DNA of 64,000 nt from a virus (taxonomy: Duplodnaviria > Heunggongvirae > Uroviricota > Caudoviricetes): positions 1-64,000 of the IMG/VR virus record IMGVR_UViG_3300033074_000580; one strand, given 5' to 3'. The position numbers and the translations under genes are program-made. This document shows, one piece after another, positions 47,513 to 47,835 of the stretch; position 1 is the first letter of the stretch, and every line of letters begins with the position of its first letter. The notes below the pieces were generated by a model. It was not told the DNA's origin. It did not search any database and worked only from the letters and a program-made list of their open reading frames with translations.

Positions 47513-47594
47513 TTTGTGTTAGTTAAATTTTTTGTTATTTTTACTTCTTATAAATATATCTTAAATAGAAAATAAATTATTTATCGGACCAAAC

Positions 47595-47623
47595 TTGATT
47601 TTATCAAAAATTTTTCGTAGTTT
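47595..47623 (+). promoter_or_regulatory. Sigma-like promoter pointing into the intergenic repeat array
   Basis: TTGATT-N17-TAGTTT on the plus strand, with no ORF downstream. Confidence 0.4.
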
Positions 47624-47636
47624 TTTACAAAATCCT

Positions 47637-47724
47637 CCAGTATCTAGTTCCAGTATAAATAATATATCTAGTTTATTATTTATTATTATATAAATACTAG
47701 TTCTAGTATATTCTAGTATACTGG
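47637..47724. repeat. AT-rich array of CYAGTW units (iteron-like), including a direct repeat TTCTAGTATA x2
   Basis: Seven direct copies plus one inverted copy (TACTGG) within about 90 bp. Confidence 0.7.
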
Positions 47725-47755
47725 GCAAATAAAATCATTTAATTATTATATCCAA

Positions 47756-47771
47756 TGTTCCACGTGGAACG
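47756..47771. promoter_or_regulatory. parS: Chromosomal-type parS palindrome
   Basis: TGTTCCACGTGGAACG: perfect 14 bp palindrome GTTCCACGTGGAAC, 15/16 match to TGTTCCACGTGGAACA, intergenic. Confidence 0.7.
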
Positions 47772-47780
47772 TTCTACAAT

Positions 47781-47810
47781 AAAAAAAGGGAAGCTTTTCG
47801 GCCTCCCTTT
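47781..47810 (-). terminator. Intrinsic terminator after the sheath gene
   Basis: AAAGGGAGGC-CGAAAA-GCTTCCCTTT followed by TTTT. Confidence 0.85.
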
Positions 47811-47835
47811 CTTATTTTTATATTCTCCTTTTAGA

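Follow-up and report, generated by a model that had tools for sequence, protein, structure and literature searches.

Results

A perfect palindrome between the tail sheath and tail tube genes

The stretch of DNA analysed here (the window, 64,000 nucleotides) is the first 64 kb of the 323,865-bp record G000, an IMG/VR jumbo phage with 32% GC and a CheckV completeness estimate of 97%. The phage is myovirus-like. In the window, a tail sheath gene (upstream) and a tail tube gene (downstream) are both encoded on the minus strand and are separated by a 323-bp spacer that harbours a parS-like sequence, referred to as site A (Table 1). The original prediction of an intergenic, perfect 14-bp palindrome in a tail operon was confirmed at this position. 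Read along the sense strand, the spacer contains the sheath terminator, whose T-run ends 10 nt ahead of the palindrome, then the palindrome itself, a further 6 nt, a TATAAT box, a CCAGTAT/CTAGTAT stretch, the ATATATTTAT block and finally the tube start. In an alignment of 64 sheath-tube spacers the ATATATTTAT block was nearly invariant, and may represent a late promoter of the clade.

Table 1. Features in and around the sheath-tube spacer (positions in the window)
Feature	Position	Strand	Details
Tail tube gene, 162 aa	47024-47512	-	PHROG 4542, E 4e-27; weak Pfam T4 gp19 match
ATATATTTAT, late-promoter-like motif (sense)	47550-47559	-	~40 nt before the tube start codon
TATAAT, -10-like box	47745-47750	-	6 nt downstream of the palindrome, sense strand
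parS-like site A	47756-47771	.	TGTTCCACGTGGAACG; perfect 14-bp palindrome GTTCCACGTGGAAC at 47757-47770
Intrinsic terminator of the sheath gene	47781-47811	-	GC-rich hairpin followed by a T-run; -26.2 kcal/mol, z = -4.2 (RNA fold)
Tail sheath gene, 818 aa	47836-50292	-	PHROG 23, E 1.4e-63; Pfam Phage_sheath_1, Phage_sheath_1C

The repeated CCAGTAT, CTAGTAT and ACTAG units of the spacer occupy positions 47600-47735 of the window. Relatives keep a CCCAGTATA...CTA block at the corresponding position, and CTAGTAT is strongly avoided throughout the phage genome (13 copies versus 78 expected).

The site recurs five times in the phage genome

Within the window, the occurrence of one parS-like site with up to three mismatches was matched in 17 of 100 shuffles and is therefore within chance. 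We extended the parS scan to the whole genome and found the core GTTNCACGTGNAAC five times, at 47757 (site A), 156104 (B), 156264 (C), 162657 (D) and 173902 (E). An order-3 Markov model predicts 0.007 copies, and the maximum over 300 simulations was 1. Four copies are exact and one reads GTTTCACGTGGAAC; all five fit the 14-bp parS core. Compared with the 16-bp inverted-repeat consensus TGTTNCACGTGNAACA, site C is perfect and site A deviates by one mismatch at the outermost base. The 16-mer TGTTCCACGTGGAACG of site A is found in identical form at G000:C1:162656-162671 and in a Flavobacterium genome.

The five copies lie in varied contexts. Site B falls within an acidic 117-aa ORF, where it encodes VPRGT, while site C is located at a divergent junction, 24 nt upstream of the start of the same ORF. 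Site D is intergenic and site E marks a convergent gene junction. Their flanks are unrelated save for sites A and D, which have TAGA(A)C on one side and ATT on the other in common. Five of the 15 CACGTG hexamers of the genome are part of the 14-mer. The intergenic half-site GTTCCAC is almost confined to full palindromes; we therefore regard the sequence as a specific dyad site and rejected a general promoter box.

A probable Bacteroidota host suggested by ribosome-binding and promoter motifs

DNA searches against GenBank phages revealed no relatives of G000, and its sheath protein gave remote matches only, at about 34% identity. Thus, a cultured relative or known host is absent from the phage collection. 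Two independent signals in the sequence point to a host from the Bacteroidota, and the phylum is used below in this inferred sense. First, the Shine-Dalgarno core was detected in just 17 of the 372 ORFs, together with an A-rich tract at -14 to -10. Second, intergenic TTTG-N18-22-TAnnTTTG motifs occur 25 times in promoter orientation versus twice in the opposite orientation and 0.46 times in shuffles. Scarce Shine-Dalgarno sequences and sigma-A promoters of this TTTG type are marks of Bacteroidota. On the same two grounds, the assignment extends to a large uncultured phage clade.

The host-type TTTG promoters are concentrated at 150-170 kb of the genome, and the early region was therefore placed there. 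Four of the five sites lie within or at the edges of this 18-kb region. GC skew tracked gene orientation and transcription and did not reveal a replication origin.

The palindrome has the spelling of Bacteroidia parS

Bacteroidota comparison genomes, gathered via a 16S probe, allowed a comparison with the parS of the inferred host group. The exact 14-mer was present in 57 of the 151 Bacteroidia genomes (56 of 150 if G107, an unpublished genome on which nothing else depends, is left out), usually as one to three clustered copies, versus 0 for a reversed control. A Flagellimonas and a Myroides genome each contain exactly two perfect TGTTCCACGTGGAACA 16-mers 1.9 kb apart, and a Chryseobacterium genome has a pair with the same spacing in the TTTC/GAAA spelling. 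In a Flavobacterium genome we found ten clustered sites, among them the phage's own spelling with its terminal G. The Flagellimonas pair flanks gidA/mnmG, with one site 7 nt before the start and the other 7 nt after the stop codon (L338:3702-5614). This gene is a classic origin-proximal gene. The parAB genes of this Flagellimonas are located elsewhere, 1.4 Mb from the pair, and ParB genes are present in the hosts named here.

Outside the Bacteroidota, the phage spelling equals the parS of P. aeruginosa and of Burkholderia chromosome 1 (PMC4368675, PMC5450999), in agreement with the original identification of a chromosomal-type parS. Judged by sequence, the palindrome appears to be a genuine parS of this type in the spelling of the inferred host group, the Bacteroidia.

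No partition proteins were detected in the phage

Profile searches for ParB_N, HTH_ParB, AAA_31 (ParA) and tyrosine integrase gave no match across G000, and even at E 0.1 no ParB_N or HTH_ParB candidate emerged. Likewise, tblastn with Flagellimonas ParA and ParB returned no match in the phage genome (best E 0.68 and 2.0, respectively). The absence of parA and parB, as originally noted for the window, therefore holds for the rest of the genome by these methods. That is, the parS sites of the phage lack cognate parAB on the same replicon according to profile families and tblastn.

Conservation of the site in related phages

By their tail tube protein, at least 595 contigs in IMG/VR were recognised as relatives. 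We compared the core with 64 unique sheath-tube spacers from relatives; the closest match had no mismatch in 6, one mismatch in 19 and two mismatches in 10, while shuffled spacers gave 0, 0 and 0.3, respectively. That is, 35 of the 64 spacers contain a parS-like site with up to two mismatches, versus 0.3 expected, and the other 29 do not. In lineages with the exact site, 88-100% of the 16-mer was common versus only 20-33% of the 40-nt flanks, which argues for selection, or repeated gain. A scan of IMG/VR for the 14-mer returned at least 120 stretches, a number that chance alone could give according to a rough estimate.

The setting of the site is conserved as well. A terminator of variable sequence is always present in the relatives. 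The median distance from its T-run to the start of the parS-like site is 6.5 nt, and 22 of the 35 relatives with such a site have TATAA 6-8 nt beyond it. This fixed arrangement of terminator, site and TATAA hints at a connection with transcription. Four relatives instead have the site behind the tube terminator, which suggests a DNA-level element able to move within its neighbourhood.

Conservation in this spacer, originally proposed as a check, was found in about half of the relatives as far as the presence of a site is concerned, but the centre of the palindrome is degenerate in many relatives and the exact core is retained in just 6 of the 64 spacers. Bases 6-7 (AC) are fixed, whereas bases 8-9 (GT) become CG, AT, GA or AA in several independent lineages, giving the central variants CGCG, CATG, CGAG and CAAG. 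Of the 35 syntenic sites, 12 have an A as base 8 and 12 have something other than T as base 9; the central CACGTG is thus not kept across relatives. Even in the closest relatives, where the terminator is identical, the site is already one or two mismatches off. Most near-complete relatives have either one exact copy, located in the sheath-tube spacer, or none at all. The half-site GTTCCAC is intact almost everywhere, and P. aeruginosa ParB binds half-sites such as GTTCCAC (PMC10419367). Such asymmetric decay is not expected of a site for a symmetric ParB dimer and falls on bases that canonical parS keeps; it counts against a strict parS.

Sites B-E bracket and divide a lineage-specific early module

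Sites B-E lie in an accessory region that is specific to the lineage; searches of IMG/VR found no relatives of it or of the genes adjoining sites B-D. They bracket and divide an early module whose proteins are small and mostly without family, including DUF932, GP88 and RNA-polymerase alpha-CTD-like proteins. None of the proteins near these sites resembles a cognate binder.

The module contains a second motif, TTTACTGGA, with 44 copies versus 4.2 expected, all of them at 156,417-174,108, between sites C and E. Many of them are either arranged as inverted pairs (TTTACTGGA-N4-14-TCCAGTAAA) or placed directly ahead of promoters of the Bacteroidota type; one of the inverted pairs encloses site D. 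The relatives G001-G004 have only one to three copies. The motif is probably the operator of an early-gene regulator.

Discussion

Proposed recruitment of host ParB and its alternatives

Identity with the centromere of the host group, five copies in varied contexts and the lack of detectable phage ParAB make recruitment of host ParB by these orphan, host-type parS sites the best explanation, and we hold it to be true with slightly better than even confidence. Borrowing of host ParB is the most likely reading because five sites of exact host type are present and a phage ParB was not detected. The original interpretation is partly supported, as regards the type of the site, its match to the inferred host group, its recurrence and the lack of detected phage ParAB; the purposes that it put forward, in which the phage may recruit host ParB and SMC to position or segregate its DNA or may titrate ParB, stand as proposals. 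Once the phage DNA has entered the cell, a host ParB dimer would recognise the parS sites. ParB would then bind CTP and close around the phage DNA as a sliding clamp, in the manner known from the host chromosome.

If ParB does bind, three consequences can be envisaged. The phage genome may be hitched to the partition and condensin machinery of the host, a prospect that we rate just short of even. A non-integrated genome would thereby be positioned or inherited while lysis is delayed (carrier state), as the non-sporulating counterpart of the spore entrapment of phi29. Less probably, clamps spreading from three sites might damp transcription of the 18-kb early region with its host-promoter-driven genes. 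Slightly less probable again is that ParB is titrated by the many phage copies and that segregation in the host is thereby disturbed.

A wider reading joins three claims and is, as a whole, rather doubtful. ParB clamps from the bracketing sites (156,263 and 173,902) and the dividing site (162,656) would act as a switch on the early region; this switch would silence the early genes while the 324-kb genome persists, partitioned as an episome in non-sporulating Bacteroidota; and the large, widespread clade of aquatic jumbo phages, with its 595 or more IMG/VR contigs, would keep a one-site version after the sheath terminator, so that borrowing would be general.

The main rival is that the palindrome serves as the operator of a regulator unrelated to ParB, from phage or host, and that its match to parS is coincidental. 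We consider this unlikely; at site A, the operator would control a promoter that starts right after the sheath terminator. The position of the site just past the terminator with TATAA close behind would suit an operator, as would the uneven conservation, in which bases 8-9 vary but the left half and GGAAC are retained; directional elements typically show such asymmetry. Site C precedes a gene start where two genes diverge, and the early region has a dense operator grammar of its own in the form of TTTACTGGA. However, the parS core admits only 4 of the 16,384 possible 14-bp palindromes and the phage carries the exact spelling of the host group, so that an operator requires a 1-in-4,000 coincidence with host parS. 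Moreover, neither a -10 box nor a spacing is common to the other four sites, and one of them is inside a coding sequence. No candidate regulator is encoded next to the sites. Two of them belong to the 117-aa ORF, whose strongly acidic product is without family and was set aside as an unlikely binder.

It is quite improbable that the sites are bound by a divergent ParB-like or KorB-like protein of the phage itself, as a self-contained system. Most of the many early proteins of G000 are without family and could conceal such a protein, but neither the permissive profile searches nor tblastn with a host ParB brought one to light, and a private system has no reason to use the exact host spelling.

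About as improbable are functionless copies, whether left over from host DNA that was once captured or arisen between phage regions by recombination or duplication. The additional flanking bases common to A and D, the placement of B-E in an accessory region and the decay of sites in relatives would agree with neutral remnants. However, neutral processes are not expected to yield five copies of one 14-mer whose flanks are otherwise unrelated, the site is retained across lineages with randomised flanks, and no host-like genes lie beside the sites.

A hairpin in RNA or single-stranded DNA that aids termination or transcript stability was rejected as highly improbable: the site does lie immediately 3' of intrinsic terminators and is predicted to fold into a 5-bp stem with a 4-nt loop, but the stem is weak, a structure beyond the terminator would seldom be part of a transcript, pairing in relatives is often lost (C-A, G-A) without a compensatory pattern, and one copy is inside a gene and another at a promoter.

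Comparison with known systems

The closest parallel to ParB recruitment comes from the virulent Bacillus phages phi29 and Nf, for which PMC2731898, summarising Meijer et al. 2005, describes parS sites bound by host Spo0J. According to the same source, phi29 carries five such sites and uses them for spore entrapment of its genome (PMC2731898). Like phi29, G000 combines five dispersed host-type parS sites with no detected ParB, ParA or tyrosine integrase, and by analogy it would be a non-integrating phage that relies on the ParB of its host. Since phi29 already carries five host parS sites, the principle is known and the idea is less new. The two phages differ in other respects: phi29, a 19-kb podovirus, infects a spore-former and is entrapped in the forespore, whereas G000 is a 324-kb myovirus-like phage with an inferred non-sporulating Bacteroidota host, and it has four sites bracketing or within the early region and one after the sheath terminator. 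Bacteroidota are not known to form endospores. The purpose must therefore differ from that in phi29, and a segregation role would concern dividing or dormant cells.

The phage sites resemble chromosomal parS/ParB-CTP complexes, such as those at parS1-4 of P. aeruginosa (PMC4368675), in their TGTTCCACGTGGAACA-type 16-bp inverted repeat and in their clustered copies, and the half-site kept in phage relatives is a known ParB target in that species (PMC10419367). Unlike chromosomal parS, they are located on a phage and not beside oriC, and parAB are missing from the replicon.

Dispersed centromeres also occur on plasmid-prophages, where short palindromes such as the sopC-like sites of N15 and the parS of P1 are scattered on a mobile replicon. 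The KorB-OB operators of plasmid RK2 likewise comprise several dispersed palindromes, and long-range silencing by sliding clamps is known for them (PMC11790492). As in RK2 and N15, several short palindromes are spread over G000, some of them in late or structural regions. In contrast, N15, P1 and RK2 have their own ParB, SopB or KorB and private spellings, whereas in G000 no element-encoded ParB-family protein was detected and the spelling is that of the host.

New here is the combination of a jumbo phage of an inferred non-sporulating Bacteroidota host, the bracketing of an early region and the tight coupling of a clade-wide site to the sheath terminator; the literature searched contained no papers on host-type parS in jumbo or Bacteroidota phages. 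If ParB recruitment is true, jumbo phages that look lytic and infect a phylum prominent in aquatic and gut habitats would hold a handle on the segregation and condensin machinery of their hosts. Carrier states and pseudolysogeny, poorly understood although frequently invoked for phages of Bacteroidota, would thereby gain a concrete mechanism, and the single phi29 example would be extended beyond spore-formers. In addition, an orphan parS in host spelling would be a simple marker that could help to predict host and lifestyle of uncultured phages.

Additional features of the early region

Three further elements were observed near sites B-E. The 117-aa ORF (G000:C1:155887-156240, minus strand) might encode an early protein of the DNA-mimic type, given its strongly acidic composition; it belongs to no family. 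A free-standing 98-aa RNA-polymerase alpha-CTD-like protein is encoded at G000:C1:162193-162489 (Pfam RNA_pol_A_CTD, E 1e-11) and is possibly a decoy for activators or UP elements. It is 30-40% identical to the RpoA CTDs of Bacteroidia and 32-34% to those of Clostridia; as these ranges overlap, a host call from this protein was dropped. Finally, a GC-richer non-coding stretch of 600 bp (G000:C1:173900-174510; L005:5900-6510) occupies the convergent junction that has site E at its edge. An Rfam search of 32 kb around sites B-E, including this stretch, gave no match. The stretch contains eight GTATTAC/GTAATAC copies and 24 long-range inverted repeats, and may serve as an iteron-type origin or encode a large structured RNA.
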